Shown here: in pieces, positions 1,344-52,319 of the stretch
Position numbering within the stretch: the stretch's first letter is position 1
How the letters are laid out: the number at the start of each line of letters is the position of its first letter
Made by a program: the position numbers and the translations under genes
From: Escherichia coli
Lineage (GTDB): Bacteria; Pseudomonadota; Gammaproteobacteria; Enterobacterales; Enterobacteriaceae
DNA length: 64,000 nt
Strand: one strand, 5' to 3'
NCBI RefSeq assembly: GCF_003019035.1
Contig: NZ_CP027447.1
Notes under the pieces: model-generated
What the model saw: only the letters and a program-made list of their open reading frames with translations
What the model was told of the DNA's origin: nothing
Databases searched by the model: none

Positions 1344-1832
1344 ATGAAGACCATTCTACCTGCAGTATTGTTTGCCGCTTTCGCCACCACTTCCGCCTGG
1401 GCGGCAGAAAGCGTCCAGCCACTGGAAAAAATCGCACCTTATCCACAAGCTGAAAAAGGCATGAAGCGTCAGGTGATTCAGTTAACTCCGCAAGAAGATG
1501 AATCTACCCTGAAAGTAGAACTGTTAATCGGTCAGACGCTGGAAGTCGACTGCAATTTGCATCGTCTCGGCGGGAAGCTGGAAAGCAAAACGCTGGAAGG
1601 CTGGGGCTATGATTATTATGTCTTTGATAAAGTTAGCTCGCCGGTTTCCACGATGATGGCTTGCCCGGATGGCAAGAAAGAGAAGAAATTTGTCACCGCG
1701 TATCTGGGCGATGCTGGAATGCTGCGTTACAACAGCAAGCTGCCGATCGTGGTGTATACGCCAGACAATGTGGATGTGAAGTACCGTGTCTGGAAGGCGG
1801 AAGAGAAAATTGACAACGCGGTTGTCCGCTAA
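1344..1832 (+). CDS. eco: Ecotin, periplasmic serine protease inhibitor
   Basis: ORF track starts at 1323 (MKKESKK...); the second ATG at 1344 gives the canonical 162-aa protein [20 protein letters not shown] with signal peptide. Confidence 0.93.
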
Positions 1833-1849
1833 ACTGCTGTGAAGTGCTG

Positions 1850-1980
1850 CAACCTGTAGGCCGAATAAGGCGGTTACGCCGCATCCGACATCTAACGCCC
1901 GAGCCGGTTGCCTGATGCGACGCTGACGCGTCTTATTAGCATACGCCACATCCGGCAAACCATGCCGGATGTGGCACATC
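1850..1980. repeat. REP/BIME palindromic units between eco and mqo
   Basis: Tandem imperfect palindromes of the gccggatg...catccggc / aggcctacag class visible in sequence. Confidence 0.7.
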
Positions 1981-3845: not shown

Positions 3846-5489
3846 TTATGCCGTCCGGGCAACGGCATCACGCGAAGCAGCATCGCGCTCTTCGCCTGTC
3901 AGCTCGCTAAGTTGCCCGTTGCGCATTTCCAGCAGGCGGTCAGCGTGGATAAAGTAATGATCATCATGACTGATGGCGAAAATCGTTTTACCCATCTCCT
4001 GCATCAGCGGTAGCAGCACCTGATAAAACTCACGGCGGAAGTGTGGGTCCTGATCCGCCGCCCATTCATCCAGCAGGATAATATCGCGTTCTTCTGCCAG
4101 CGCCAGCAACAGCGCGACGCGTTTTTTCTGCCCTTTTGATAACTTCAGGTTAACAATACGCCCGTTACTTAACTCAAGCTTATGAGCCATTTTCAGCTGC
4201 GCCAGCCACTTCTCAACCAGTTGCGGGTTAGCGGGTTGCCCCTCCGGCCCCAGCAGTTGATCAAACAGCCAGACATCGGTAAACACTGCCGAAAACAGTT
4301 TGCGATAATCTTCCGGTTGTTCGCCGCTGACAGGTTTGCCATCCAGCAAGATTTCGCCGCTTTGTGGCTGATACAAGCCCGTCAGCAACATCGCCAGCGT
4401 CGATTTTCCGCTACCGTTGCCACCAATCAGAAACAGCAGTTCGCCACGTTTGATGGTGAGGTTAATCGGCCCAACGGAAAACGCGTTATCCTGATAAGCA
4501 AACGTCACGTTACGCAGCTCCAGCGTTTGCCAGTTGGGAAACGCCTGCGGGCGCGGAAACTCTGCTTTGAAAGGCGCGAGCGCGAATTTGTTCAGCTTGT
4601 TAAACGCCACCTGCGCCGTCAGCAGCGTCGGCAATGCGCCAACTGCCGAAAGCAGCGGCGTACGCAGGAATAACAGCGTCAACGAATAGGTCGCGGCAAC
4701 GTTGGTATCAGCCCAACCGAGACTGTTCGCCATCCAGAACACCAGGCCGATAGCGCCCAGCATCATGATGTTTGACCAGTTCACGGCACTAAGATGGAAG
4801 GTGTCTGCGCGGATAATATGATGGCGATACTCTTGCGCATCAGGAATGTAGAGGTTGTTAAACACATACTCGGCGCGTTCCCGGTTCAGAGTCAGCTCTT
4901 TGCGCCCTTCGAGTACGGTTTGAAAATCCGTGTACAGCTTATCTTCGGTTTCACGCAGGGTCGCCATATGTTTGTACACCCGCGCCACCAGCACAAAACC
5001 GCCCCAGATGGTGACTGCCATCCAGATAGCCGTTACCAGCAACATTTTGCCCGACAGCATCCACAAATACGCCGCGGAACCGATAGTGAGAATGATCCCC
5101 TGCACCAGTTCCGGCAGACGCACAAAAGCAATGGTGATATTGCGCACATCGCTGGTTAACCCCGCCAGCAACGAAGCGCTACCAAGTTGTTCAATGCGCT
5201 CGACGTGGGTATCCAGAATCCGCTTGATAAATTCACTACGCAGTCGGTAAACGAAGTGATGCCCCAAAGTGGTGAGCGCCAGTTGCGATCCGAGAGTGAC
5301 TGCCATCAACAGCAACAATAATCCCAGAAACTCCGGCAACACCAGCAGACTGGTATCCGCCGTTTCGATAAGGCGCTGATTGATAAAAGCAATTAAGCCA
5401 ATGCCTAATGCCGCACTGGCGAGGCTTAGCGCCATCACACTGATAAATGGCCAGCGATACTGCCGCCAGACAAGTACAAGAAGTTCCAT
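3846..5489 (-). CDS. yojI: ABC transporter (fused permease/ATPase), microcin J25 efflux type
   Basis: 547-aa ORF; N-terminal TM domain, C-terminal Walker [10 protein letters not shown] and Walker [12 protein letters not shown]. Confidence 0.9.
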
Positions 5490-9800: not shown

Positions 9801-9948
9801 GAACTTTTTAAGATTATTGCGGAATGGCGAAATAAGCACCTAACATCAAGCAATAATAATTCAAGGTTAAAATCAATAACTTATTCTTAAGTATTTGACA
9901 GCACTGAATGTCAAAACAAAACCTTCACTCGCAACTAGAATATCTCCC

Positions 9949-10041
9949 GCTATCATCATTAACTTTATTTATTACCGTCATTCATTTCTGAATGTCTGTT
10001 TACCCCTATTTCAACCGGATGCCTCGCATCCGGTTTTTTTT
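9949..10041 (+). ncRNA. micF: MicF antisense sRNA (represses ompF)
   Basis: GCTATCATCATTAACTTTATTTATTACCGTCATTCATTTCTGAATGTCTGTTTACCCCTATTTCAACCGGATGCCTCGCATCCGGTTTTTTTT; divergent from ompC, ends in hairpin plus T-run. Confidence 0.9.
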
Positions 10042-13041: not shown

Positions 13042-13692
13042 ATGAACAATATGAACGTAATTATTGCCGATGACCATCCGATAGTCTTGTTCGGTATTCG
13101 CAAATCACTTGAGCAAATTGAGTGGGTGAATGTTGTCGGCGAATTTGAAGACTCTACAGCACTGATCAACAACCTGCCGAAACTGGATGCGCATGTGTTG
13201 ATTACCGATCTCTCCATGCCTGGCGATAAGTACGGCGATGGAATTACCTTAATCAAGTACATCAAGCGCCATTTCCCAAGCCTGTCGATCATTGTTCTGA
13301 CCATGAACAACAACCCGGCGATTCTTAGTGCGGTATTGGATCTGGATATCGAGGGGATCGTGCTGAAACAAGGTGCACCGACCGATCTGCCGAAAGCTCT
13401 CGCCGCGCTGCAGAAAGGGAAGAAATTTACCCCGGAAAGCGTTTCTCGCCTGTTGGAAAAAATCAGTGCTGGTGGTTACGGTGACAAGCGTCTCTCGCCA
13501 AAAGAGAGTGAAGTTCTGCGCCTGTTTGCGGAAGGCTTCCTGGTGACCGAGATCGCTAAAAAGCTGAACCGCAGTATTAAAACCATCAGTAGCCAGAAGA
13601 AATCTGCGATGATGAAGCTGGGTGTCGAGAACGATATCGCTCTGCTGAATTATCTCTCTTCAGTGACGTTAAGTCCGGCAGATAAAGACTAA
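13042..13692 (+). CDS. rcsB: RcsB response regulator (LuxR/FixJ family)
   Basis: ORF track starts at 12997; the ATG at 13042 gives the canonical 216-aa MNNMNVIIADDHPIVLFGIRKSLEQ... Confidence 0.93.
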   Translation: MNNMNVIIADDHPIVLFGIRKSLEQIEWVNVVGEFEDSTALINNLPKLDAHVLITDLSMPGDKYGDGITLIKYIKRHFPSLSIIVLTMNNNPAILSAVLDLDIEGIVLKQGAPTDLPKALAALQKGKKFTPESVSRLLEKISAGGYGDKRLSPKESEVLRLFAEGFLVTEIAKKLNRSIKTISSQKKSAMMKLGVENDIALLNYLSSVTLSPADKD

Positions 13693-13694
13693 TC

Positions 13695-13777
13695 ACCTGT
13701 AGGCCAGATAAGACGCGTCAGTGTCTTATCTGGCATTTGCACTGAATGCCAGATGCGGCGTAAACGCCTTATCCGTC
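13695..13777. repeat. REP palindromic units between convergent rcsB and rcsC
   Basis: cctgtaggccagataagacgcg...gccagatgcggcgtaaacgccttatcc imperfect palindromes. Confidence 0.65.
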
Positions 13778-16627
13778 CTACGATTCCCGCGATTTCCTGA
13801 CCCTCTCGGCATATACCGTCAGCGTCTGTTTTATCACATCCAGCGTTACCGGCTTCGACAGGCAGCTGTCCATACCGGACTCCAGACACCGCTGCTTCTC
13901 TTCAGCCAACGCATTAGCAGTTACTCCGATTACCGGCAACGTCAGTCCCAACTGACGAATGCGTTGCGTCAAGCGGTAACCATCCATATTTGGCATGTTG
14001 ACGTCGCTAAGCACGATATCAATATGATTCTTGCTAAGTACATTAAGCGCATCGACGCCATCATTCGCGGTTTTACATTGATAGCCCAACGATCCCAACT
14101 GATCTGCCAGCAGACGCCGGTTAATCGGATGATCATCCACGACCAGAATCATCATATCGTCATTATCGCTGACCGCTTTGTCCGTCGACGGCAGAGCGTT
14201 AGCAGGATCGTCGCTCTCCATCTCGATCAAATAAATACGCGCCAACAATGCCGGTAGCTCATGCGGGGCAGCCACACTGTGTACCCACTCCCCTGGCGCT
14301 TTCTCCAGCGGAATACCAATATGGCGACGACAGAAGGTCACTACCGCTCTACCCTGCCATTTTTTACTCACTACCTCGTCAGTAATTAACACATCTTCGG
14401 GAGTCGGTTCCTGCCCTTCGTATGTTGTAACGACGATGCCGCTGCGCTGCAAACTGGTTTCCAGGAACTGACAGAGCGACGCATTGCGGACCGCCAGCCA
14501 GCAGCGTTTACCACTCAACCCTTCCACGCCTTTTTTCTGCGGGTACTGAGCGCCGTACAACGGAATACGCACGGTAAACTGGCTGCCCATTCCCGGTTCT
14601 GAATCTACCGAGATGTCGCCGTCCATCATGCTGATCAGTTTTTCACAAATCGCCAGACCCAGACCGGTCCCCTGGAAGTTTCGCTGTACGCCCGTTCCGA
14701 CCTGGAAGAAGGGATCAAACAAGCGCACGACTTCTTTCGCCGGAATCCCCACGCCGGTATCGCGAACACGGATAGAGAGATAATCGCCATCAGCGCGAAC
14801 ATGCAAAACTATACAGCCGGTATCGGTGAATTTTATGGCGTTACTCAACAGGTTGGAGATGACCTGCTGTAAACGCATCGGGTCGCCATTTAAGGCCACT
14901 GGCACATCCGGTTCAATAAAGCAGTACAAGCCTAACTGCTTGCGTACCACCAGCGGTAAATAGTTGGCGGTGATGTGGTTCATCACTTCACGCGGTGAAA
15001 ACTCACGCGGTTCGATCTTCAACTGTTCTGATTCAATTTTCGAGAAATCGAGAATATCGCTGATAATTTTCAACAACAGGCTGGAAGAGTTGTTCATTGC
15101 CGTCACCAGACGATCGACGCCTTTCGGTAACTCTTTGGTTTGCAACAGATCCAGGTTACCGATAATGCCATACAGCGGCGTTCGCAGCTCATGACTGACG
15201 GTGGCAAGGAACATCGATTTTGACTGGCTCGCCTGTTCCGCTGCTTGTGCCATCTCCTGCAACGACTCTTCCATCTTCACGCGCGAAGATACATCCACCA
15301 GCACACAAATGGCCACGTTTTCATTACGATAGCGCGAATGGACGAAGCTGATTTGCAGATTGGTATTGTTGCTGGTCAGGACATCAACAAAATTGACCTG
15401 CTGCCCACAGATAATTTGTGTCAGCCGTTGGCGATCCTCATGCGTAAGCATATTGAGATAGGTATGCGCCAGTTCGTTACTTAAAATATTGACGCCATCA
15501 GCGGTACGCAAAATGCAGATACCCACTGGCGCGGAGGCGACAATCTTGCGATTAAACTGCTCATGTTCTTCCAGTCGCAGGGCGTCGCTTTCCGCCGGAA
15601 TGAAAATACGTCGCTCGTACATCCGCGCGAGAGTAAACAATGCAGCTCCGGCAAGCACATTCAGCAAAATTGCGTTAAGGATCAACATGCGAATGCGTTC
15701 CAGCACCTTATCAACCGGCACCGAATACACGATGCTTAGCGATGAGGGTGGCAGATTTTTCTTCAGCACCAGCTCCCGGAACCCTTCCGTATAGCCAAAC
15801 CAGGAGCGTTCCTGCATCCAGCGAGGATCGCCCTTAATTTTGCTTTCTGGTCCGGTAAGCGAAATCAGGGTATGACCATTTTCATCAAGAATGGTAACCC
15901 CCATCGGCAACGTACCAGGTAAGAAAAAGTTCTCCATCCGGATGGTCTGCTCGACACCCAAAAGCGCCTGCAACCGGTTCGCCAGATAAACTGGCGTCAA
16001 CGCGTAAAAATACCCGACGCCAGGGCGCGGACCTTCGCTGATCCAGTAGAGGTTACTGCCACTATCATCTTGTGGTGCATTTCGATATTTATTAATGCGT
16101 TCATGCAACGCTTTTAGCGCGGTATCGCGTTCCACTGGCATATCACGCAGACCGAAATTGGCCATGCAGAGGTTATCGCTGCCGATTAAAAATACCCGGT
16201 TGAGATCGTAAGCCGCAGAAAAATTATCGCGCCAGTAGCGCATAAACCACGCCAATGACTCCAGAGAACCTCGCCAGGTGTTACTCATTGCGGAACAATC
16301 AGAGTCAGCAAACAGCGGTTCAAACGCAGGCACATCCGTCTGCGTTTCTCGTCCACGCGGGGAAAGCACACCGTTTTCTGCCGATAAGCGATTTTCGGCG
16401 ATGTACTTCAGCTCTTTCATCACATCAGAGGTGCGTTGAATAAAGCGCTGAGCCTGATCGGAACTCAGATTAAATTCCTGACGAATTTCCGATTCTCGCT
16501 GATGTAACGCATTAACGATGTAAAAAACGGATGAAAAAGCAATCAACAGCCAGAGCACTAACGCCAATGCTCTGAACATGTAGCGCGAGGCTTTCAGGGT
16601 TGTACGAAAAGAAGCAAGGTATTTCAA
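13778..16627 (-). CDS. rcsC: RcsC hybrid sensor histidine kinase
   Basis: 949-aa ORF MKYLASFRTTLKASRYMFRAL...; HisKA motif SHELRTP and C-terminal receiver domain. Confidence 0.93.
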   Translation of the reverse strand: MKYLASFRTTLKASRYMFRALALVLWLLIAFSSVFYIVNALHQRESEIRQEFNLSSDQAQRFIQRTSDVMKELKYIAENRLSAENGVLSPRGRETQTDVPAFEPLFADSDCSAMSNTWRGSLESLAWFMRYWRDNFSAAYDLNRVFLIGSDNLCMANFGLRDMPVERDTALKALHERINKYRNAPQDDSGSNLYWISEGPRPGVGYFYALTPVYLANRLQALLGVEQTIRMENFFLPGTLPMGVTILDENGHTLISLTGPESKIKGDPRWMQERSWFGYTEGFRELVLKKNLPPSSLSIVYSVPVDKVLERIRMLILNAILLNVLAGAALFTLARMYERRIFIPAESDALRLEEHEQFNRKIVASAPVGICILRTADGVNILSNELAHTYLNMLTHEDRQRLTQIICGQQVNFVDVLTSNNTNLQISFVHSRYRNENVAICVLVDVSSRVKMEESLQEMAQAAEQASQSKSMFLATVSHELRTPLYGIIGNLDLLQTKELPKGVDRLVTAMNNSSSLLLKIISDILDFSKIESEQLKIEPREFSPREVMNHITANYLPLVVRKQLGLYCFIEPDVPVALNGDPMRLQQVISNLLSNAIKFTDTGCIVLHVRADGDYLSIRVRDTGVGIPAKEVVRLFDPFFQVGTGVQRNFQGTGLGLAICEKLISMMDGDISVDSEPGMGSQFTVRIPLYGAQYPQKKGVEGLSGKRCWLAVRNASLCQFLETSLQRSGIVVTTYEGQEPTPEDVLITDEVVSKKWQGRAVVTFCRRHIGIPLEKAPGEWVHSVAAPHELPALLARIYLIEMESDDPANALPSTDKAVSDNDDMMILVVDDHPINRRLLADQLGSLGYQCKTANDGVDALNVLSKNHIDIVLSDVNMPNMDGYRLTQRIRQLGLTLPVIGVTANALAEEKQRCLESGMDSCLSKPVTLDVIKQTLTVYAERVRKSRES

Positions 16628-36599: not shown

Positions 36600-37802
36600 T
36601 TATTTGATCACATAGGCAAGATATTGTTGTACGATTTCATCGTTTAATTCCTGACCAAGCCCAGGCAACTCTGGCGCGACATAATAGCCATTCTCGGGTT
36701 GATAATCGTAAGTACAAAGTTCCCGAATACATGCTTTCATCGCATTGGTATGATGTTCATGAATAATAAAGTTAGGTATTGCAGTTTCCATATGCAGCGC
36801 CGCTACTGTTGAAACAGGCCCGCCACAAACATGTACCTGAACGGTTGTGTCATATATATTGGCATAATCACAAATTTTCTTTCCCTCTGTAATGCCACCA
36901 CAAAGACACAAATCAGGTTGAGCTACCGCAATTGATTGTTTTTCCAGTAAATCACGATATCCCCAGCGAGTATAAGAACGCTCACCTGTTGCTATCGGAA
37001 TCGATGTTGAACGGGCAACTTTCTGCATATTATCCGAATTTAATGGATGAATTGGCTCCTCATAGAGAAAAATACGATATTTCTCTATTGCTTTGGCAAA
37101 CTGGATCGCTGAATTTGTTCCTAGAAGAGAATGAATCTCTACAATAATATCAGCATCGTCGCCCATTGCTTCACGCATAGCGGCAATTCTTGTCTCGCCC
37201 ATTTTTAATTGTTCGGCCAGTAATAAGCCAGAGTAATTTCTATTTTTGTTCTGAAAGACACAATCGCCGCCATGCAGATCGATTTCAAGCGGATCAACTT
37301 TTATCGCATTATAACCTTCTGCAATAGCGGCACGCGCTGCCTCTGCATACTCTTCAGGCGTTACTAATATTTGCCTTTTTTCGCCCCAACCAAATTGTAA
37401 CTGACTGGCGTAAGTTCTCAATTTATCGTTAGTCTTTCCCCCCAGTAGTTGATAAACCGGCACGTTTAAATATTTACCTTTAATATCCCATAAGGCAATA
37501 TCAATAGCGCTCATACCTGCGTAAAAAACATTACCACCGCCCATTCCCCAAAATGTTTTCCTGAAGAGGAATTCCCAAATCTTCTCAATGTTCAACGGAT
37601 CTTCACCAATGATGAGAGGGGCTAAATCTCTGATAATACCAACACCAGATTTTGCACCTGCGCCATAGGCTAATCCTACTTCGCCAACACCACTTATTCC
37701 AGCATCGGTATTAACCCGAATAAGTACTGGATTATAAGAGGCCATAGTTTGATCTCTTTTTTTGAGTTCGCAGTCAAAAATTTCTACAGATGTAATCTTC
37801 AT
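36600..37802 (-). CDS. Enolase-superfamily dehydratase (mandelate racemase / galactonate dehydratase-like); substrate unknown
   Basis: 400 aa from the ATG at 37802 (GAGG Shine-Dalgarno 7 nt upstream; ORF track starts at 37814). Motifs ALWDIKGK, QLLGG, EEP, ATGER, QPDL, GGITE shared with DgoD/RhmD-type enzymes. Confidence 0.8.
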   Translation of the reverse strand: MKITSVEIFDCELKKRDQTMASYNPVLIRVNTDAGISGVGEVGLAYGAGAKSGVGIIRDLAPLIIGEDPLNIEKIWEFLFRKTFWGMGGGNVFYAGMSAIDIALWDIKGKYLNVPVYQLLGGKTNDKLRTYASQLQFGWGEKRQILVTPEEYAEAARAAIAEGYNAIKVDPLEIDLHGGDCVFQNKNRNYSGLLLAEQLKMGETRIAAMREAMGDDADIIVEIHSLLGTNSAIQFAKAIEKYRIFLYEEPIHPLNSDNMQKVARSTSIPIATGERSYTRWGYRDLLEKQSIAVAQPDLCLCGGITEGKKICDYANIYDTTVQVHVCGGPVSTVAALHMETAIPNFIIHEHHTNAMKACIRELCTYDYQPENGYYVAPELPGLGQELNDEIVQQYLAYVIK

Positions 37803-37814
37803 AAATAACCTCAT

Positions 37815-39143
37815 TTATTTAGCATGTGAAATAACATTGTCTTTCTGGGCGTTATCTTTTTTATTATCAATTTTCATTGATAACAAAATAGCTACGGCGA
37901 TAAAGCAAAGAATCGCCTCAACAATAAATATCCCCGTGGCTCCATAATGTGTAGAAACATAGCCAAGTGATTTATTGATCAGAAAACCACCCAAACTTGA
38001 ACAAGAGTTAATAAACGCAATACTGATTGCCAGGCCTGATGGTGAAAGTAAAGCTGAGGGTAAAGCCCAGTACGGACCGTAATAACTGAGAATGCCTACA
38101 CCGTATAATGTTAATCCCATCATGCGCAGCGTCATCGAAGGTACAAGTGCGATCATTAAAAAACCGCAACCTGCAACCAACATCGGTAGTGCGGCATGCC
38201 ATTTCCTTTCATTCTTTTTATCGGAATGCCATCCCCATAATGGCATACTGAACATCGCGAAAATAAACGGAATACTCATAATCAAACCGACATCGGTATC
38301 TGTGAAATCCGATGAAAATCCTTTAACCAACCCCGGTAACCAGTAATTTGCCGCCAACGCCGCTGCCTGAATAAACATATAAGCAAATGAGAGTTGTAGT
38401 AATACTGGATTTTTAATGATTGACAGAAAAGATGCATTTGTATTTTTATTTAATGCTGCGGCTTTTTCGTTATCAGAATTAAGTTTATCGACCAATGCGG
38501 TGACTTGCGATGGTGTAAGCCAGCGGGCTTTTTCCGGACGATCTGGCAGTAAATAAAAGGTCAGCGCCCCCAATAACACCGTAGGAATGCCTTCAATAGC
38601 AAAAAGCCAGCGCCATCCTTCATAGTTACCGGTATTCATATGTTCAATAATCCAACCAGACATTGGTGCCGCCAGCACAGATGCAACTGCGATTGATAAC
38701 ATAAAAAAGCTATTCACTTTTCCACGTTCACGCGCCGGGAACCAACATGCCAGGTAGTAAACCATGCCAGGGAAAAAACCCGCTTCAAATATTCCCAAAA
38801 AGACCCGAGCGAGCAATATATGCTGGGTGTCTTTGGCAAAGAAAATTAACGTTGTTACTGTTCCCCAACCAACAATAATGGCGCTAATCCATTTTCTTGC
38901 ACCTAACTTTTGCAATCCAATACTGCTCGGAATTTGAAAAATCAAATAGGACACAAAAAATATTGAAGATATATTAGCAAAATCCTCTGGAGTAATACCA
39001 AGGGATTCATTCATGCGTAAAGCGGCAAATCCGATGTTAACACGATCCATATAGTTAAAAAAATACAGAATAAATGCTAACGGAATAATCTTCCTTTTCA
39101 CAATAGAAATGGCGTCATACAAATCTTTCTGAGGACTGCTCAT
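37815..39143 (-). CDS. MFS transporter, anion:cation symporter family (sugar-acid type)
   Basis: 442-aa polytopic ORF; conserved DRxNIGFA and GIFEAGFFPG motifs as in RhmT/DgoT-type transporters; AAGGTG Shine-Dalgarno; 12-bp gap to the dehydratase gene. Confidence 0.8.
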   Translation of the reverse strand: MSSPQKDLYDAISIVKRKIIPLAFILYFFNYMDRVNIGFAALRMNESLGITPEDFANISSIFFVSYLIFQIPSSIGLQKLGARKWISAIIVGWGTVTTLIFFAKDTQHILLARVFLGIFEAGFFPGMVYYLACWFPARERGKVNSFFMLSIAVASVLAAPMSGWIIEHMNTGNYEGWRWLFAIEGIPTVLLGALTFYLLPDRPEKARWLTPSQVTALVDKLNSDNEKAAALNKNTNASFLSIIKNPVLLQLSFAYMFIQAAALAANYWLPGLVKGFSSDFTDTDVGLIMSIPFIFAMFSMPLWGWHSDKKNERKWHAALPMLVAGCGFLMIALVPSMTLRMMGLTLYGVGILSYYGPYWALPSALLSPSGLAISIAFINSCSSLGGFLINKSLGYVSTHYGATGIFIVEAILCFIAVAILLSMKIDNKKDNAQKDNVISHAK

Positions 39144-39380
39144 TTTGTTTCACCTTTTGTGCTTCAATGAATAAGAGTACTGCCCGAAGTGGATATTACG
39201 TAAAAAATAATCCAGTTCAAAAGGTGATGTGTTATATCTGATATATCAGCTTGATCATTGATTGAAACACTAAGCTACAACAATAAGATATATCATTTTT
39301 GTCATATCTGATATATTAGACACCTTCATTGATAAAATGATTACATATAATGGACCAGCAGCTTAATAAGGGGCAAAGGA

Positions 39381-40079
39381 ATGAGAGATAAAGCGAAACG
39401 TGACTTAAGTCACATATCAATTGAGATACCAAAATCCGTAACACAGGTCATCAAAGAAAAAATCAGGGATATGATAATTCATGGCGATCTCAGTCTTGGG
39501 CAACCGATAAGTGAAAATGAACTTTCGAATATCCTGGCGGTAAGTAAAACACCTATTCGTGAAGCTTTTATTTTACTTAGTCACAATGAAAATCTGATCA
39601 ATATCATTCCACGCAGCGGAACATTCGTTTTTTCCGTAACAGATAAAGATATTAATGACCTCATAAAAATGCGAGTAATTCTGGAGCAGGGTGCAATTCG
39701 TGAAGCAATGGAAAAGAATGAAAACAATGTCATCATTGAATTAAGTAGCATACTATCAAAATCAGCAAAAATTAATGCCGAGCGTGATACTCAGGCTTAT
39801 CTTAAATTGGATCATGATTTTCATTATGTGTTTGTTAAATACGCTGCTAATAAATACATCTCTCAGGCACACCAATTGATATCCGCACGTTTACTTGCTA
39901 TTCGTTATCGACTGGATTTCACTACGGAATATATTACCAATTCAAATCGTGGCCATGCCACTATTTTAGATATGCTAAAAAATAATAACGTTGAAGGTGT
40001 TTGTAATTTTATTACTCATCACGTAAGTAGTGGATTTACCGAGCGTGCACGAAAAATTCTCTCGTTATCTACACAGTAA
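39381..40079 (+). CDS. GntR-family transcriptional regulator (FadR/FCD-type C-terminal domain)
   Basis: 232-aa ORF; N-terminal winged HTH (ENELSNILAVSKTPIREAF); divergent from the MFS-dehydratase pair; AAGGGG Shine-Dalgarno 7 nt upstream. Confidence 0.8.
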   Translation: MRDKAKRDLSHISIEIPKSVTQVIKEKIRDMIIHGDLSLGQPISENELSNILAVSKTPIREAFILLSHNENLINIIPRSGTFVFSVTDKDINDLIKMRVILEQGAIREAMEKNENNVIIELSSILSKSAKINAERDTQAYLKLDHDFHYVFVKYAANKYISQAHQLISARLLAIRYRLDFTTEYITNSNRGHATILDMLKNNNVEGVCNFITHHVSSGFTERARKILSLSTQ

Positions 40080-40884: not shown

Positions 40885-41015
40885 TTGTTTGGATTCAGCC
40901 GACGACCGAGCCAAGCCTGATGCGACGCTTGCCGCGTCTTATCAGGCCTACAAATGCTCCCGTAGGCCAGATAAGGCGTTTACGCCGCATCCGGCAACAG
41001 TGCCGGTCAGACAGC
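40885..41015. repeat. REP/BIME palindromic units between convergent ubiG and yfaL
   Basis: gcctgatgcgacgcttgccgcgtcttatcaggcctacaa... / ggccagataaggcgtttacgccgcatccggc palindromes; spurious ORFs 40889..41236 and 40920..41114 lie in it. Confidence 0.7.
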
Positions 41016-41017
41016 GA

Positions 41018-44000
41018 TTACCATTTCACTGTCATCGACAAAAACCCTGCCGTCTGGGCAAAATCATCACTCCCTTTCTGCCACGCCACGCTACCACGCA
41101 GCGAAACTCGCTGACTGATATTGCCCGTTATTCCCACTTTTATTTCACCCCGTTGCTTCACCGCATCGTCACTGATAGTGCTGCCATCTTCTTCAATTTC
41201 CGTCGCATGGGGATCGTGATAATAATTCAGATCTAATGTTGGTATGACACCAACCGCGGTACGCCATTCGCTGTGTAAACCCAGCCGCGTTTGAATATCA
41301 TCACCCTGCGATTGTGACACCCGCGCATGGTTAGCAGCGGTGAAATCATCCTGCTGCACGCCCTGATAAATCACCTGCGCCTGTGGTTCAATCACCACTC
41401 CATGCCCCGGTAACCACTGATACCCGGCTTCCAGCGAGGCGATAATCCCCGATGAGTGGTAATGATCCGCGCCATCTTCATGTTCGGAAACATCATTGTT
41501 AAACCACGCGTATTGCAGCCAGCTATCCAGCCAGGCCCCCTGCTTCTGATTACCGTGCTGGAACCAGCTTGAGGTCAGACCAACGGCATAACCGTGGTTC
41601 TGGTTATCGGCGCGAGTTCCGGTCATATTCGAGCGGCTGTCGCCCTGGTTATCACTGTAGCCACCAACCGCCCCAAGCATCCACTCGCCATCCATGCCCC
41701 AGCGCCCGCTAAACAAGTCGCCGCTAAGCTGCACCGTAGAAGTGTCTTCATGCTGAGCCAGTTGCCCCGCTGCTGTGTAATGATAATCTCCGCCGATAAC
41801 ACGTAAATTCAGCGTCTGACCATCGCCACCAGCGTGATCGCGTCGCTCCATCACAAATGCCTGATTTGCCGCACGTAGGTTATTGAGATAGCCACCAACT
41901 TTGGCATTCAGCACCGGCTGGTAGGCAGGCGTAGGGGCTGGAGCCGGGTCGGGTGTTGGATCAGGATCCGGCGTAGGATCAGGATCTGGAGTCGGGTCTG
42001 GATCGGGCGGCGATGGTGGCGTTACTTCTTGCGATCGCAGATACCAGTCGTTGTTATCTTCCACCAGCGTGTAGTCATACGCTCCCATATTGACGTAGCC
42101 GCTGCCCGCCAGACTGAACTGCGCATTGTTTTGAAATTGCGTTGGATCGGCTGCGAAATCAACCACTTTAATGCCCGTAGATGTCGGCTCACCAATACCC
42201 GTAATGGGATTAATTACCACGGTCGTGTTGCCAGCAGTATTACCGTTCAACACCAGTTGGTCGCTTGCCGAGTCATCGCCGTTTAATTCGCTGTCGAGAA
42301 ACAACGTACCGCCACCGGTGTAATCACCGTTTACCGTGAGCGTGTCGCCAGCAACGCCATTTTGCAGACTGACAGCACCGGAAGTATTAGTTAGATCACC
42401 ATTGACCGTCACGTCTGAAAGATAAGTCAGGCTGTCAGTTTCAAGGTTGGTATTAAGCTCGCCTGTCAGCGTCACACCATCGGTGGCATTCACCAACGTA
42501 CCGTCGCCGCTAAACAGCGAGGCATCCAGCGCCTGGTTCGTATCCTGCTGCGTCAATCGCAACACAGTACCATCGGTTATGTCGATATCGCCGCCAGAGG
42601 TGGCATCGATTGAACGAATATCCTGATTTTGCCCGGTTTCAAAAACACCGTCTTCCCCCACCCACAGTGAAGAAACATAAGGAATAATATTCTCCGCTTC
42701 ACCTTTTAGCGTTCCGTCCTCCACACGTACCGCAGACGTCGCAGTGCCGCTGGCGGTCAACTCCAGCGTCCCGCCGCCACTTTTAGTCAACGTGCTTACG
42801 CTATCCAGTTGTTGCCCGGTACTATCCGCCATCAACCCGCCCCATTGCGTATCTACGCCATCCTCAACGTGTATTTCGCCATCAGCGCGCATTTCAATAT
42901 TCCTGCCCTGACCTGTTGTAGCCGAGCGAGTGTCAACATCAGTCGTCACATCCATTTCACTGTGTTGTTGGGGATCTGTGAAGATCACTGAACGGTTGTA
43001 ACTTGTGTCCCCCAATTGCGAATTATCGCTGACTTCAAGCGTACCGGAGGCGATTTGCGTATTACCGAGATAACCGTTGTTATTCGCCAGCGTTACGCGC
43101 TGATCCCCCGCATTAATGACGACATAAACGCCATTCTGGCTGGCATCACTGCCGCCAATATGTAAATCATCGCCACTGCTGATATCAACGACATCATTAC
43201 TACCAATCACTGTCCCCCCGCTGCCGCTGATTTGCAGACCGTCATTGTATGAGCTATCGCCATCCCAGGTGGTGAAATCAGAGAGATCCAATACTCCGCC
43301 ATTTAGCACGATCGATTGCGGATCGCTCTGCATTGCCCGTAAATCGGCCTGATTCCCCGCCAGCGACAATACGGCGTTATCTTCCACCACAATATCGCCG
43401 GTTAATGCCATCGACTGCGCCCCTGTCAGGAGATAGCTGCCATCTTGCGCTACCGTCAACTGTCCTTCACCCTGAATCGAGCCGGAAAAACCGCCCTGGT
43501 TTACGGTAACATTGCCGCCTGCGTCGATATTCAAAATGCCATTAGCAAAACCGGTTAATGAGTGCACAAACGTTTGTTGTGTATTGCCAACATTCAGTTC
43601 TGCCTGATACTCAGAATGAACAGTGCTGCCGACCATCAGACCAAAGCAATCCTGCGGATCGCTCTGACAGTGCGTGTCGCCGACATTCATTAACTCATCG
43701 CTGCGCCCCAACGTCACCTCGCCATTCTGGATACTCATCTCGCCGGTAAACGCATTATTGTCGGCATTGAGGACTAACTCTCCCGCTCCCTCTTTAACGA
43801 TGACTCCCGTTCCGGCAAGAGAATCAATCGCGCCATCGTTGCTGGTATTGCCTATTACCAGCGTTTTATCGGCGGCAATGTTAAATTCAGCCACACTATG
43901 ACCGATATACATAAAGCCCCCCGCCGCTGCCGTCGCCGAATGGTCATATCCCGAGGCGCTGTTATTTTCATCAATCATCACACCATTGTTTTGGTCATAA

Positions 44001-44782: not shown

Positions 44783-45315
44783 ATTAATCTGACCATCATT
44801 TTCTATAAGACGGCATATTTAATCGCATTATACGATATGGGTTATTTTTCTTTTGTAAATTGTTCAACCCGGTGCAATGGCTATTTTGTTATTATTTCAT
44901 GAATAATATCAGTGCGTCATAATTCAAGTTAATCACCTTAAGGGATATCAGTTATGTTTAAACTGAATTAAAGTAATGAATAATTTTCTTATAATATAAG
45001 GTAAATTAACAAAATGGCTTCGCATTTAACAACAACCGAAGAGAAAACAACCATTTCGACATCAACAATCGCTTACATTCGCTTATATATTGACCATAAC
45101 TGATACATCAGATTATGTGATGACTCGTGCTTAGATCAATTTTTGCAATCATTAGCCAAAAGATTAATAAACCATCTATATCAATTTATCTAACCTATTC
45201 TTCCGTTCAAGAAATCGCCGAACAGTTATTTTTAACAAATTTTTCTCTTCCCATTGACTTTCCCGGACACCTTGTCTGACCTAAGGTGCGCGAAAGCCAC
45301 TTTTTCCTTCCTGAG

Positions 45316-45324
45316 TTATCCACA
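45316..45324 (+). promoter_or_regulatory. DnaA box in the nrdAB promoter region
   Basis: Exact TTATCCACA consensus. Confidence 0.7.
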
Positions 45325-45353
45325 AAGTTATGCACTTGCAAGAGGGCCATTTT

Positions 45354-45477: not shown

Positions 45478-47763
45478 ATGAATCAGAATCTGCTGGTGAC
45501 AAAGCGCGACGGTAGCACAGAGCGCATCAATCTCGACAAAATCCATCGCGTTCTGGATTGGGCGGCAGAAGGACTGCATAACGTTTCGATTTCCCAGGTC
45601 GAACTGCGCTCCCACATTCAGTTTTATGACGGTATCAAGACCTCTGACATCCACGAAACCATTATCAAGGCTGCCGCAGACCTGATCTCCCGTGATGCGC
45701 CGGATTATCAGTATCTCGCCGCGCGCCTGGCGATCTTCCACCTGCGTAAAAAAGCCTACGGCCAGTTTGAGCCGCCTGCGCTGTACGACCACGTGGTGAA
45801 AATGGTCGAGATGGGCAAATACGATAATCATCTGCTGGAAGACTACACGGAAGAAGAGTTCAAGCAGATGGACACGTTTATCGATCACGACCGTGATATG
45901 ACCTTCTCTTATGCTGCCGTTAAGCAGCTGGAAGGCAAATATCTGGTGCAGAACCGTGTGACCGGCGAAATCTACGAAAGCGCCCAGTTCCTTTATATTC
46001 TGGTTGCCGCGTGCCTGTTCTCGAACTACCCGCGTGAAACGCGCCTGCAATACGTGAAGCGTTTTTACGACGCGGTTTCCACATTTAAAATTTCGCTGCC
46101 GACGCCAATCATGTCCGGCGTGCGTACCCCGACTCGTCAGTTCAGCTCCTGCGTACTGATCGAGTGCGGCGACAGCCTGGATTCCATCAACGCCACCTCC
46201 AGCGCGATTGTTAAATACGTTTCCCAGCGTGCCGGGATCGGCATCAACGCCGGGCGTATTCGTGCGCTGGGTAGCCCGATTCGCGGTGGCGAAGCGTTCC
46301 ATACCGGTTGTATTCCGTTCTATAAGCATTTCCAGACAGCGGTGAAATCCTGCTCTCAGGGCGGTGTGCGTGGCGGTGCGGCTACGCTGTTCTACCCGAT
46401 GTGGCATCTGGAAGTTGAAAGCCTGCTGGTGTTGAAAAACAACCGTGGGGTGGAAGGCAACCGCGTGCGTCATATGGACTACGGGGTACAAATCAACAAA
46501 CTGATGTATACCCGTCTGCTGAAAGGTGAAGATATCACTCTGTTCAGCCCGTCCGACGTACCGGGGTTGTACGACGCGTTCTTCGCCGATCAGGAAGAGT
46601 TTGAACGCCTGTATACCAAATATGAGAAAGACGACAGCATCCGCAAGCAGCGTGTGAAAGCCGTTGAGCTGTTCTCGCTGATGATGCAGGAACGTGCGTC
46701 TACCGGTCGTATCTATATTCAGAACGTTGACCACTGCAATACCCATAGCCCGTTTGATCCGGTCATCGCGCCAGTGCGCCAGTCTAACCTGTGCCTGGAA
46801 ATCGCCCTGCCGACCAAACCGCTGAACGACGTCAACGACGAGAACGGTGAAATCGCGCTGTGTACGCTGTCTGCTTTCAACCTGGGCGCAATTAACAGCC
46901 TGGATGAACTGGAAGAGCTGGCAATTCTGGCGGTTCGCGCACTCGACGCACTGCTGGATTATCAGGATTACCCGATCCCGGCCGCTAAACGTGGAGCGAT
47001 GGGGCGTCGTACGCTGGGTATTGGTGTGATCAACTTCGCTTACTACCTGGCGAAGCACGGTAAACGCTACTCCGACGGCAGCGCCAACAACCTGACGCAT
47101 AAAACCTTCGAAGCCATTCAGTATTACCTGCTGAAAGCGTCTAATGAGCTGGCGAAAGAGCAAGGCGCGTGCCCGTGGTTTAACGAAACCACTTACGCGA
47201 AAGGGATCCTGCCGATCGATACCTATAAGAAAGATCTGGATGCCATCGCTAATGAGCCGCTGCATTACGACTGGGAAGCACTGCGTGAGTCAATCAAAAC
47301 GCACGGCCTGCGTAACTCCACGCTTTCTGCTCTGATGCCGTCAGAGACTTCTTCGCAGATCTCTAACGCCACTAACGGTATTGAACCGCCGCGTGGTTAC
47401 GTCAGCATCAAAGCGTCGAAAGACGGTATTCTGCGCCAGGTGGTGCCGGACTACGAGCATCTGCACGACGCCTATGAGCTGCTGTGGGAAATGCCGGGTA
47501 ACGATGGCTATCTGCAACTGGTGGGTATCATGCAGAAATTTATCGATCAGTCGATCTCTGCTAACACCAACTACGATCCATCACGTTTCCCGTCAGGAAA
47601 AGTGCCGATGCAGCAGTTGCTGAAAGACCTGCTCACCGCCTACAAATTCGGGGTCAAAACGCTGTATTATCAGAACACCCGTGACGGTGCTGAAGACGCA
47701 CAAGACGATCTGGTGCCGTCAATCCAGGACGATGGCTGCGAAAGCGGCGCATGTAAGATCTGA
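45478..47763 (+). CDS. nrdA: Ribonucleoside-diphosphate reductase 1 alpha subunit
   Basis: 761-aa ORF MNQNLLVTKRDGSTERINLDKIHRVLDWAAEGL... Confidence 0.97.
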   Translation: MNQNLLVTKRDGSTERINLDKIHRVLDWAAEGLHNVSISQVELRSHIQFYDGIKTSDIHETIIKAAADLISRDAPDYQYLAARLAIFHLRKKAYGQFEPPALYDHVVKMVEMGKYDNHLLEDYTEEEFKQMDTFIDHDRDMTFSYAAVKQLEGKYLVQNRVTGEIYESAQFLYILVAACLFSNYPRETRLQYVKRFYDAVSTFKISLPTPIMSGVRTPTRQFSSCVLIECGDSLDSINATSSAIVKYVSQRAGIGINAGRIRALGSPIRGGEAFHTGCIPFYKHFQTAVKSCSQGGVRGGAATLFYPMWHLEVESLLVLKNNRGVEGNRVRHMDYGVQINKLMYTRLLKGEDITLFSPSDVPGLYDAFFADQEEFERLYTKYEKDDSIRKQRVKAVELFSLMMQERASTGRIYIQNVDHCNTHSPFDPVIAPVRQSNLCLEIALPTKPLNDVNDENGEIALCTLSAFNLGAINSLDELEELAILAVRALDALLDYQDYPIPAAKRGAMGRRTLGIGVINFAYYLAKHGKRYSDGSANNLTHKTFEAIQYYLLKASNELAKEQGACPWFNETTYAKGILPIDTYKKDLDAIANEPLHYDWEALRESIKTHGLRNSTLSALMPSETSSQISNATNGIEPPRGYVSIKASKDGILRQVVPDYEHLHDAYELLWEMPGNDGYLQLVGIMQKFIDQSISANTNYDPSRFPSGKVPMQQLLKDLLTAYKFGVKTLYYQNTRDGAEDAQDDLVPSIQDDGCESGACKI

Positions 47764-47764
47764 T

Positions 47765-47905
47765 TTTGAGATGCCGGATGCGGCGTGAACGCCTTATCTG
47801 GCCTACGGCTCGGTTTGTAGGCCTGATAAGACGCGCCAGCGTCGCATCAGGCACAGGATGCGGCGTAAAATGCCTTATCCGGCATTAAACTCCCAACAGG
47901 ACACA
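47765..47905. repeat. REP/BIME palindromic units between nrdA and nrdB
   Basis: gccggatgcggcgtgaacgccttatctggcctac... and aggcctgataagacgcgccagcgtcgcatcagg palindromes; spurious ORF 47654..47854 and the 5' extension of the nrdB track ORF lie in it. Confidence 0.75.
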
Positions 47906-47908
47906 TTC

Positions 47909-49039
47909 ATGGCATATACCACCTTTTCACAGACGAAAAATGATCAGCTGAAAGAACCGATGTTCTTTGGTCAGCCGGTCAACGTGGCTCGCTACGATCA
48001 GCAAAAATATGACATCTTCGAAAAGCTGATCGAAAAGCAGCTCTCTTTCTTCTGGCGTCCGGAAGAAGTTGACGTTTCTCGTGACCGTATCGATTACCAG
48101 GCACTACCTGAACACGAAAAACACATCTTTATCAGCAACCTGAAATATCAGACGCTGCTGGACTCCATTCAGGGTCGCAGCCCGAACGTGGCACTGCTGC
48201 CGCTGATCTCGATCCCGGAACTGGAAACCTGGGTAGAAACCTGGGCGTTCTCAGAAACGATTCATTCCCGCTCCTATACCCATATCATCCGTAATATCGT
48301 TAACGATCCGTCGGTTGTGTTTGACGATATCGTCACTAACGAGCAGATCCAGAAACGTGCGGAAGGGATCTCCAGCTATTACGATGAACTGATCGAAATG
48401 ACCAGCTACTGGCATCTGCTGGGCGAAGGCACCCACACCGTCAACGGTAAAACCGTGACCGTTAGCCTACGTGAGCTGAAGAAAAAACTGTATCTCTGCC
48501 TGATGAGCGTTAACGCGCTGGAAGCGATTCGTTTCTATGTCAGCTTTGCTTGTTCTTTCGCATTTGCGGAACGCGAACTGATGGAAGGCAACGCCAAGAT
48601 TATTCGCTTGATTGCCCGTGACGAAGCCCTACACCTGACCGGCACCCAGCATATGCTGAATCTGCTGCGCAGCGGCGCGGATGATCCGGAGATGGCGGAA
48701 ATTGCCGAAGAATGTAAGCAGGAGTGCTATGACCTGTTTGTCCAGGCGGCACAGCAAGAGAAAGACTGGGCGGATTATCTGTTCCGTGATGGTTCGATGA
48801 TTGGTCTGAATAAAGACATCCTCTGCCAGTACGTTGAATACATCACCAATATCCGTATGCAGGCAGTCGGTTTGGATCTGCCGTTCCAGACGCGCTCCAA
48901 CCCGATCCCGTGGATCAACACCTGGCTGGTGTCTGATAACGTGCAGGTTGCTCCGCAGGAAGTGGAAGTCAGTTCTTATCTGGTCGGTCAGATTGACGCG
49001 GAAGTGGACACCGACGATTTGAGTAACTTCCAGCTCTGA
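47909..49039 (+). CDS. nrdB: Ribonucleoside-diphosphate reductase 1 beta subunit
   Basis: ORF track starts at 47858 inside REP DNA; the ATG at 47909 gives the canonical 376-aa [22 protein letters not shown]... Confidence 0.95.
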
Positions 49040-49295: not shown

Positions 49296-49346
49296 TGGTT
49301 TTAACGCCAGATACGACGCTTATACGTCTTATCTGGCCTACAACGA
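49296..49346. repeat. REP-like palindrome between yfaE and inaA
   Basis: cgccagatacgacgcttatacgtcttatctggcctaca. Confidence 0.55.
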
Positions 49347-50077: not shown

Positions 50078-51268
50078 TTAATGAATTTCTTTTGCCGCTA
50101 CTAGCATGACACCGCTTTTGCCCTTCATTTGCAGCGCATAGACTCCACCAGCCACTACCACTAATAGTGCACCCAGCAGATAAATCATTCGGTAGCCAGT
50201 ATGTGCAACCATCATCCCCATCACACAGGCTCCCAGCGCCAGGCCTGCATCCATCGCATTGAAGAAGAGGGAGTTTGCGACACCGATTTTATGCGGTTCC
50301 ACTGAACTGATAATCTGCGTCTGAAAAACTGGCGTCACGGAACCATACCCGATACCAATCAACGCGCCAGAAACAACCATCATTATGCTTCCCTGGGTGT
50401 AGCCGAGAACCACCAGTCCAACCGTAAAGAACACAAGGCAAGGGTAAACCACATATTTCGGTCCTTTTTTGTCGCAGACATTGCCGGTAAAGGTACGGCA
50501 GATCATCAGGAAGATAGCGTAGCAAAGCAGGAAATTACTGGCTGCCGACATCAGGTTAAGTTCGCGTGCATAAAGCGCCAGAAAAGCAGAAACCCCGGCA
50601 TACGAAAAGGTCATAAAAAAGGTGACCATCGCAAATGGCAACGCCGCGCGATCGAACATGGCGGCGAAGCCCATTTTCGGCGTTGAACCATCAGCATGGC
50701 TGATAACCGGCGGCACTGTCATAATCAGCGACAGAATAATCCCCACCGCTGCCACGCCGGTGCATAACCAGAAAGCCATATTAAAGGCCTCCCAGCGCGC
50801 CATATTCAGGCCAATCCACGGCCCGACCACCATTGCCAGCCCCATTGCCAGAGAGAAAAAACTGATGCCCTCCCCACGTCGGGAGGCCGGGATCAGCCGC
50901 GCGGAAATCGTTCCTTTTACCGTAGTGATAACCCCGAAGGTAATACCATGAAGCACCCGAATAAAAAGCAGTGATTCAATTGAGTGGCAAAAAGGATACA
51001 GCGCAGTGACCACCAAGAAGGCCAGAGAAGAGAGCCCCAGAATAGTTTTATTCGAATATTTGCCCACCCATTGCCCGGCAAAGGGGCGAATAACAATGGC
51101 GGCAATTAAAAATAAAGTCACCAACAAACCTGCTTTATCAGGAGAGGCATGCAAGCGGTCTGAGATATAAATTGGCAACAATGTTAGTAAAACATAAAAG
51201 ACGAAGAAAATAATAAAACTGATGATGGTTATTGCCCAAAAATCCTTCGTCCATAACTTCTCTTTCAT
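50078..51268 (-). CDS. MFS transporter (12-TM, efflux-type)
   Basis: 396-aa polytopic ORF MKEKLWTKDFWAITIISFIIFFVF...; divergent from the adjacent LysR gene. Confidence 0.8.
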   Translation of the reverse strand: MKEKLWTKDFWAITIISFIIFFVFYVLLTLLPIYISDRLHASPDKAGLLVTLFLIAAIVIRPFAGQWVGKYSNKTILGLSSLAFLVVTALYPFCHSIESLLFIRVLHGITFGVITTVKGTISARLIPASRRGEGISFFSLAMGLAMVVGPWIGLNMARWEAFNMAFWLCTGVAAVGIILSLIMTVPPVISHADGSTPKMGFAAMFDRAALPFAMVTFFMTFSYAGVSAFLALYARELNLMSAASNFLLCYAIFLMICRTFTGNVCDKKGPKYVVYPCLVFFTVGLVVLGYTQGSIMMVVSGALIGIGYGSVTPVFQTQIISSVEPHKIGVANSLFFNAMDAGLALGACVMGMMVAHTGYRMIYLLGALLVVVAGGVYALQMKGKSGVMLVAAKEIH

Positions 51269-51419
51269 ACCCTACCGCCTGTCAGGATGACGCACGCAGA
51301 CAACACTCCCGTTACTGCGGTTGCGTCAAATTGTGATGTACTTTGCAGAACAGAAGTATAAATGGCGGCATGCTATTAGAGAAATTAATCGTTTTAATAT
51401 TATTGATTAGCAAACTCTA

Positions 51420-52319
51420 ATGACTCTTACCCAAATAAATTCTTTACTCGCCGTGCTGGATTACGGTGGCTTTACTGAAGCCAGCAAGCGATTGTTCATG
51501 ACGCAGTCGGCGGTAAGTCAGGCAATTGCTGCCCTCGAACAAGAACTTGGCGTGAATATACTGTTACGCGATCGCCGTAAAGCTATACAACTGACCTCTG
51601 CAGGTCACCGCATTATGCATCATCTGCGCGCCATTAATCGGGAAGTGAACGCAGTAAAAGAGATAGCCGAGCAGGAAAAGCAGAACCCTCAAAGAACGCT
51701 GAGACTTGGTTGTTTCCCCAGCGTCTGCGCCTGTATCTTACCGGCTGTGATTCGCTACTTTGAAATTCATCATCCGAATATAAAAATTATTCCTTTTGAG
51801 GAAAATAGCACAGCGATTATTGATTCCCTTCAGAATGAATCCATTGATGCCGGTTTTGTTCATTTTCCGGTGAGCGGAATGTACTCCGTGCCCATTTATC
51901 AGGATAAATTCACCGTAGTGTTACCGCCCAACCATGCTCTGGCAAAAAACAGCACTATTACAGTGGAAGAGTTAATGGGTGAACCATTAATTATTAGTAA
52001 AGGACGCTATGAATTAAGCATTATGGCACTATTTAAAGAAAAGAATATTACCCCACAGATAAAATATGAATTTAATCACCCGGATACAGCGATCAGTTTT
52101 ATTCGACAGGGATTAGGCATCGCCTTATTACCAGAGTTAACGCTGAAAACCATTGCAGATGAATTGTGTTCCGTTCCTCTCGAACCAACCTTCTATCGAC
52201 AGATTTCGTTGCTGACTAAAGAAAAGCCGGTAGAAGGCAGTCCACTGTTTTTACTACAAATGTGCACAGAACAATTAGTGGAGAGTGGAAAATTTGATAT
52301 GAGACAGGATGGCGCATGA
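51420..52319 (+). CDS. yfaH: LysR-family transcriptional regulator (full-length counterpart of the K-12 yfaH fragment)
   Basis: 299-aa ORF with N-terminal HTH (FTEASKRLFMTQSAVSQAIAALE) and LysR substrate-binding domain. Confidence 0.8.
   Translation: MTLTQINSLLAVLDYGGFTEASKRLFMTQSAVSQAIAALEQELGVNILLRDRRKAIQLTSAGHRIMHHLRAINREVNAVKEIAEQEKQNPQRTLRLGCFPSVCACILPAVIRYFEIHHPNIKIIPFEENSTAIIDSLQNESIDAGFVHFPVSGMYSVPIYQDKFTVVLPPNHALAKNSTITVEELMGEPLIISKGRYELSIMALFKEKNITPQIKYEFNHPDTAISFIRQGLGIALLPELTLKTIADELCSVPLEPTFYRQISLLTKEKPVEGSPLFLLQMCTEQLVESGKFDMRQDGA

Follow-up and report, generated by a model that had tools for sequence, protein, structure and literature searches.

We identify positions 47768-47888 of the window (the whole 64,000-nt stretch of Escherichia coli DNA analysed here), with high confidence, as a BIME-2-type cluster of three E. 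coli REPs located in the intercistronic spacer of the nrdA-nrdB-yfaE operon, the ORFs of which are not genes and downstream of which nrdB starts at position 47909. This stretch displays the characters of E. coli REPs (Y/Z2) and of BIME-2s, namely a palindrome, a tetranucleotide end, an alternating orientation with a variable number of units, and extragenic occurrence in multiple copies. A first-pass annotation of the same DNA had interpreted ORFs at this and other REP sites as repeat artefacts rather than genes. That interpretation is supported, and the underlying observation is partly confirmed, being essentially correct with one quantitative overstatement (the REP share of its example ORFs). 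The repeat is a textbook one and the annotation artefact belongs to a known class; both are already known biology and bring no new principle.

Genomic context and REP sites of the window

A query of approximately 1 kb around the spacer matched 5,415 of 5,426 complete E. coli genomes over most of the query length and was 100% identical to E. coli strain SCU-301. Alignment of the whole window with the SCU-301 chromosome was gap-free, at 99.99-100% identity. Transfer of the RefSeq annotation to the window yielded 45 intact CDS, the gene order being napD, eco, mqo, ompC, rcsDBC, the ato genes, gyrA, ubiG, yfaL, nrdA, nrdB, yfaE, inaA, and the glp and rhm genes. Two intervals hold genes that are missing from these positions in K-12: the gyrA-ubiG interval (36600-40079) carries a mandelate-racemase-family enzyme, an MFS transporter and a frameshifted GntR regulator, and the inaA-glpQ interval (50078-52319), in which the yfaH pseudogene is located in K-12, an MFS transporter and a LysR regulator. 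The lowest codon score among the annotated genes of the window (-0.21, a value that non-coding ORFs also show) was that of ypaB, a 47-aa gene on the minus strand opposite and upstream of nrdA (45207-45350). The MicF sRNA was located upstream of ompC (9948-10041, plus strand; 116.8 bits, the whole model being covered). Rfam Rev24 (RF02738) also matched at 15370-15824 on the plus strand, with E = 8e-30 and 118.7 bits, which falls short of the gathering score of 246. Rev24 is an antisense RNA of soft-rot Enterobacteriaceae, and the match, which is antisense to rcsC, probably reflects the conserved rcsC coding sequence.

A blastn-short search of the window with the REP consensus sequences (Y, Z1 and Z2) returned matches at E <= 0.001 in only four places (1856-1956, 13699-13781, 40915-40995 and 47773-47883) and a weaker match at a fifth (49325-49341, E = 0.021), the other consensus matches in the window being chance matches of 9-14 nt with E >= 0.3. 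The REP tail CTTATCMGGCCTAC, with up to two mismatches allowed, was observed eight times against 0.4 expected, a count reached by none of 100 shuffles, and all eight occurrences were confined to the five REP sites. These strong and weak consensus matches, together with the exclusive location of the CTTATCMGGCCTAC hits, bear out the five places at which the first-pass annotation had reported REP DNA; the sites were correctly chosen, but the limits given for the clusters exceed the REP DNA by up to about 30 nt. The five sites are all intergenic (P about 8e-6 given that 90.5% of the window is coding), every one of them stands at the 3' end of at least one gene, and each forms a much more stable fold than shuffled controls (z from -2.9 to -6.4).

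Two of the sites show further detail at their junctions with genes. Between eco and mqo, the mqo stop codon is followed after 6 nt by the perfect 13-bp hairpin (GCCACATCCGGCA ... TGCCGGATGTGGC, 1943-1975), which is formed from REP half-sites. In the rcsB-rcsC interval, the REP pair lies 6 nt from the end of rcsB and has zero spacing to rcsC, the stop codon of which (TAG, minus strand, 13778-13780) is part of the conserved GTAG end of the REP.

Anatomy and variation of the nrdA-nrdB spacer

The spacer between the end of nrdA (47763) and the true nrdB ATG is 145 nt long and was found to contain both inverted and direct repeats, which resolve into the three REPs listed in Table 1. The first base of REP 1 lies 9 nt after the nrdA stop codon. 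The GTAG/CTAC tetranucleotide is present at the end of REP 1 (CCTAC, 47802-47806) and at the beginning of REP 2 (GTAGG, from 47817), and is lost in REP 3. The hairpins of the Y and Z2 REPs in the spacer have folding energies of -19.1 and -22 kcal/mol, and the spacer RNA as a whole folds at -69 kcal/mol (z = -5.1). When a query containing the spacer was compared with 5,425 E. coli genomes, the median number of matching places per genome was at least 22-34.

Table 1. Features of the nrdA-nrdB region and of the other REP sites in the window
Feature	Position	Strand	Remarks
nrdA, ribonucleotide reductase alpha subunit	45478..47763	+	stop codon TGA 47761-47763
BIME-2-type REP cluster of the nrdA-nrdB spacer (whole)	47768..47888		consensus search, repeats, fold
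REP 1, Y type, ends CTAC	47773..47806	+	97% of consensus over 34 nt, E = 1e-12
10-nt linker GGCTCGGTTT between tail-to-tail REPs	47807..47816
REP 2, Z2 type, inverted	47817..47852	-	100% of consensus over 36 nt, E = 4e-16
REP 3, degenerate Y (1-nt insertion, CTAC decayed to TTA)	47853..47887	+	in-frame false ATGs 47858 and 47870
False 51-nt (17-codon) 5' extension of nrdB	47858..47908	+	ATG is that of REP motif GGATGCGGCG
AGGA Shine-Dalgarno, 7 nt before true nrdB ATG	47898..47901	+	conserved in Salmonella, Klebsiella and Edwardsiella
True nrdB, 376 aa	47909..49039	+	annotation, PDB chains, codon usage
yoaM homologue, 11 aa/codons (K-12 b4779)	47875-47910	-	last four codons and stop in REP 3; overlaps nrdB start codon
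REP cluster eco-mqo (Y, Z2, perfect 13-bp hairpin from REP halves)	1856..1977		consensus search
REP pair rcsB-rcsC	13699..13781		consensus search; reaches Rfam naRNA4 gathering score
REP pair (Z2 + Y) ubiG-yfaL	40915..40995		consensus search
Single degenerate Z2-like REP yfaE-inaA	49305..49341	+	hairpin -18.3 kcal/mol, z = -6.4
Spurious 66-aa ORF	47654..47854	-	43% REP DNA, 55% antisense to nrdA 3' end
Spurious 40-aa ORF	47766..47888	+	98% REP DNA
Spurious 115-aa ORF	40889..41236	+	23% REP DNA, 63% antisense to yfaL
Spurious 64-aa ORF	40920..41114	+	39% REP DNA, 50% antisense to yfaL
Spurious 31-aa ORF	40895..40990	-	79% REP DNA; start is a REP-internal ATG
Spurious 66-aa ORF	13689..13889	-	41% REP DNA; remainder in rcsC span, different reading frame
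Spurious 63-aa ORF	1693..1884	-	REP-internal ATG start; 73% antisense to eco

The number of units in the spacer differs between strains. In K-12 MG1655 the spacer measures 233 nt, which corresponds to that of the window plus exactly one 88-nt Y/Z2 unit, and five E. coli alleles were found to be 145, 190, 226, 233 and 241 nt long, the 190-nt allele having a different set of REPs. These alleles derive from sampled record spans and five retrieved alleles out of 5,426 genomes, query coverage being unsuited to the counting of alleles because tandem units allow two pieces to span the whole query in short alleles. The length differences between alleles are not multiples of three. BIME-2s are described as differing between strains in their number of tandem units (PMC3333891), and the variation seen in the spacer matches this behaviour and thus supports its identity as a BIME-2. 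At the DNA level, the spacer would accordingly be viewed as a repeat of changing unit number.

The start of nrdB

The long nrdB ORF of the six-frame track begins at ATG 47858, inside REP 3 and 51 nt upstream of 47909, as the first-pass annotation had reported for an nrdB ORF starting too early in REP DNA. The true start of nrdB is 47909, which gives the N-terminus of the class Ia RNR beta subunit found in PDB chains and in orthologues. All solved E. coli R2 chains in the PDB (375/376 aa) begin with (M)AYTTF, equivalent to residue 19/18 of the long ORF. The short form of 376 aa is annotated in K-12 and in SCU-301, and almost all named members of the 90% cluster from Salmonella, Klebsiella, Edwardsiella, Leclercia, Enterobacter and Phytobacter have this same length. 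The peptide MAYT(T/I)FSQ and an AGGA situated 6-8 nt before the ATG are conserved across the E. coli alleles, Salmonella, Klebsiella and Edwardsiella.

Upstream of this start, the longest in-frame extension is 51 nt in the window and in TUM9757, 60 nt in Klebsiella, 132 nt in O157:H7 and 231 nt in K-12; it is 0 nt in E. coli GN05476, where a stop codon lies four codons upstream, and none exists in Salmonella or Edwardsiella. The E. coli alleles with these variable extensions encode identical or near-identical NrdB proteins. The codon score of the 17-codon extension was 0.009 vs 0.455 for nrdB. In K-12 the 80 codons upstream of nrdB are free of in-frame stops, as far back as the nrdA stop region (K-12 record span 5152-5384), so that a caller choosing the longest ORF would extend the gene by 231 nt in that strain instead of 51.

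One could consider that ATG 47858 or ATG 47870 is a real alternative start from which a minor NrdB isoform with an extended N-terminus (393 or 389 aa) is made, and we judge this to be very improbable. Both ATGs are in frame in the window, K-12, O157:H7 and TUM9757, the ATG at -39 has an AGGA 11 nt upstream (duplex energy -4.5 kcal/mol), and the 393-aa form has been deposited on at least 24 contigs; these deposits are, however, gene-caller output rather than experiments. The uniform (M)AYTTF beginning of the solved chains, the low codon score of the extension, its range of 0-231 nt and its loss in GN05476, Salmonella and Edwardsiella all argue against such an isoform. In addition, the REP 3 hairpin holds both ATGs in base pairs (P(paired) 0.98-1.00); the long-context RNA fold, on account of its doubtful long-range pairings with the 3' end of nrdA, was consulted for this pairing state and for nothing else. 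The start at 47909 thus remains the one adopted throughout.

The energy of the Shine-Dalgarno duplex was tried as a discriminator of starts and rejected, the values for the true ATG (-4.0 kcal/mol) and for the ATGs at -51 and -39 (-2.5 and -4.5 kcal/mol) separating true and false nrdB starts poorly.

ORFs seeded by REPs

The origin of the spurious ORFs is explained by the composition of the REPs. These GC-rich imperfect palindromes are free of stop codons in several frames on both strands, and each has an ATG within the conserved motif GGATGCGGCG, so that REPs seed ORFs in the six-frame track. Some of these ORFs continue from the REP into the antisense strand of the adjacent gene, and ATG 47858, being in frame with nrdB, adds 17 false codons before 47909. 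The REP-internal GGATGCGGCG ATG that falsely starts nrdB also starts two ORFs at other sites, 40895..40990 and 1693..1884 (minus strand).

The two ORFs given as examples in the first-pass annotation, 47654..47854 (minus strand, 66 aa) and 40889..41236 (plus strand, 115 aa), do exist at these coordinates. Their description as largely repeat sequence was overstated: only 43% and 23% of their lengths are REP DNA, and 55% and 63% are antisense to nrdA and yfaL, respectively. ORFs that are 79-100% REP are only the shorter ones, of 23-40 aa. The description of the ORFs as conserved-looking, on the other hand, was apt, REP ORFs of different clusters having in common peptide blocks of 10-26 aa with 69-92% identity, on both strands. 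Recurring peptides include MRRxRLI[RW]PT, VGxIRRxRRI[RW]H (also given in the form VGxIRRLRRIRH) and MPDxTLxRLI. These peptides recur because the underlying DNA is repeated, and their resemblance mimics that of a conserved protein family.

By the measures of codon usage, Pfam matching and frame conservation, the REP-seeded ORFs are not protein-coding. Their codon log-odds per codon ranged from -0.03 to -0.52. Unannotated ORFs with a length of 60 aa or more (n = 180) gave -0.19 +/- 0.18, whereas real genes gave +0.28 +/- 0.13 and nrdB itself +0.455; the codon-bias check suggested in the first-pass annotation has thus been carried out and places the REP ORFs in the non-coding range. A Pfam scan of eight REP ORFs gave no family match, the exact sequences of all eight were absent from 15 billion proteins, and the ORFs carry no annotation in K-12 or in SCU-301. 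The frames of the REP ORFs in the spacer are broken by insertions and deletions of 88-nt units between alleles.

That one or more of these ORFs (47654..47854 or 40889..41236, for example) encodes a real small protein is, in our estimation, exceedingly improbable. The recurrence of peptide blocks between loci might be taken in its favour, and yet this recurrence follows the repetition of the DNA on both strands and in several frames. An annotated counterpart with 89% identity to the 66-aa ORF in another E. coli genome, a GAGGT Shine-Dalgarno-like sequence (-9.1 kcal/mol) before the TTG start of the 115-aa ORF, and the precedent of yoaM, a tiny translated ORF in the same spacer, could also be invoked. 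Against these points stand the non-coding codon scores, the lack of any Pfam match, the absence of the exact sequences from the protein collection, and the disruption of frames by the 88-nt unit in the spacer. Moreover, the bulk of each ORF is antisense to an expressed gene, and K-12 lacks any annotation of these ORFs despite intensive small-protein work. We accordingly retain the reading of the REP-seeded ORFs as artefacts.

The small ORF yoaM was predicted from start-site ribosome profiling and chosen for study by Weaver et al. 2019 (10.1101/511675), who found a yoaM-lacZ fusion to be more active than its out-of-frame control. The homologue in the window has a strong Shine-Dalgarno sequence (-8.5 kcal/mol). 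Since yoaM overlaps a REP and yet has translation evidence, overlap with a REP does not in itself mean that an ORF is untranslated. It was absent from the ORFs listed in the first-pass annotation, the finding of which is therefore not refuted by yoaM.

Mis-calls in public data

The warning that such ORFs would be mis-called by gene finders was well founded. The exact 393-aa NrdB has been deposited under GenBank accessions ACB18086.1, AKK33769.1, CDK50869.1 and EFU45287.1 and in a JGI metagenome, on at least 24 contigs in all. In E. coli CP007393.1 (span 1501-1701), a 66-aa protein has been called at the same place as ORF 47654..47854, to which it is 89% identical, and bears the clearly wrong name 'mannitol-1-phosphate 5-dehydrogenase'. 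In another strain, the genes called in a polysaccharide-synthesis locus include a REP-only 'hypothetical protein' of 66 aa. The REP ORFs themselves have seldom been mis-called, these being the two relatives found among 5.8 billion proteins by a word-indexed search, which may miss divergent REP ORFs. A literature search returned nothing directly on REP-derived spurious ORFs or on the nrdAB REP. For annotation, caution is warranted in that REP/BIME DNA seeds false starts and look-alike ORFs, and that the false 393-aa NrdB persists in databases; masking of REPs, or comparison of start sites with orthologues, offers a remedy.

Possible roles of the spacer RNA

The functional roles considered for the spacer are drawn from the literature. 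REPs have been described as barriers to mRNA decay, as binding sites for gyrase, Pol I and IHF, and as substrates for cleavage by TnpA-REP (PMC3333891, PMC12306157). The RNA of the spacer is predicted to form very stable hairpins starting 9 nt after the nrdA stop codon, and two effects may be expected from published work: REP hairpins would stabilise the nrdA segment upstream of them by blocking 3'-to-5' exonucleases, and a REP within 15 nt of a stop codon would stall terminating ribosomes, the upstream gene being translated less. The REP of the nrdAB transcript is named as a reported case of REP-lowered translation in the passage of PMC12306157 that cites Liang, Rudd and Deutscher 2015. The position of a REP just after the nrdA stop codon fits this published mechanism for tuning the expression of an upstream gene.

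The corresponding spacers of other genera were compared at this position. Between nrdA and nrdB, Salmonella and Klebsiella each possess REP-type palindromes of their own, which end in GTAG/CTAC, and the Edwardsiella spacer has GC-rich hairpins unrelated to REP; a stem begins 5-9 nt after the nrdA stop in all three (spans L005 1089-1200, L006 1100-1200 and L007 1110-1200). Hairpins after the nrdA stop in three other genera are consistent with a role for structure at that position, and the same picture would arise from a preference of REPs for insertion at the 3' ends of genes.

Judging from sequence, the spacer might be proposed as a lineage-variable regulatory module, in which differences in the number and type of REPs would set NrdA translation, mRNA stability and the R1:R2 ratio, and which would include a yoaM partly born from REP DNA. 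We put this forward as a speculative and rather unlikely proposal. If it were true, the ratio of R1 to R2 subunits would differ between E. coli lineages through the REP hairpins that follow the nrdA stop, and yoaM would be a gene partly born from REP DNA, the antisense strand of which would supply its last codons and stop.

A further possibility, compatible with the identification of the spacer as a BIME-2-type cluster, is that the clusters serve in the first place as genes for non-coding, nucleoid-associated RNAs like naRNA4/REP325, which condense DNA together with HU, and less as passive repeats or mRNA elements. The Rfam naRNA4 model (RF02564) matched only four of the five REP sites and nothing else in the window, the fifth site being a single REP. 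Only the rcsB-rcsC copy (13702-13778, minus strand) passed the gathering score of 59.5 bits, with 64.8 bits; the nrdA-nrdB copy (47820-47884) scored 53.7 bits, which is below that threshold, and the two other clusters 33.8-48.5 bits. These scores, and the statement in PMC4550694 that about 80% of E. coli REPs are transcribed, lend some weight to this possibility. The model, however, is in effect one Y/Z2 BIME-2 unit and behaves as a generic BIME-2 detector, for which reason any BIME-2 would score. The nrdAB copy is under the gathering score, a search around the spacer for a promoter-like site found none, and the spacer lies inside the operon transcript. We therefore regard a primary role as naRNA4 genes as unlikely.

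Comparison with known systems

The yoaM homologue of the window is the same ORF as YoaM (b4779) of 10.1101/511675, from which it differs by one substitution, S2N. Other alleles depart further from the published YoaM, the ORF being shortened to 5 codons in E. coli GN05476 and its ATG start codon missing in Salmonella. As regards translational down-regulation by REPs (Liang et al. 2015, as cited in PMC12306157), the nrdA REP is alike in beginning within the 15-nt limit described in that citing text; the allele of the window is a shorter one. The naRNA4/REP325 RNA (RF02564; Qian et al. 2015, PMC4550694) shares the two-hairpin Y/Z2 architecture, and the rcsB-rcsC copy scores as a member of the family. 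The nrdA-nrdB copy is unlike it in falling short of the gathering score, in lying within an mRNA and in being away from the REP325 locus.

The closest likeness is to the BIME-2 of the Bachellier/Hofnung classification, as reviewed by Ton-Hoang et al. 2012 (PMC3333891). The nrdA-nrdB cluster resembles it in its Y and Z2 sequences at 97-100% of consensus, in its GTAG/CTAC ends, alternating orientation and short linkers, and also in being extragenic at gene 3' ends, in having many copies per genome and in its strain-variable number of units. It is unlike the typical BIME-2 in that its third REP is degenerate, CTAC being lost and one nucleotide inserted; compared with the K-12 spacer, the window allele lacks one Y/Z2 unit.
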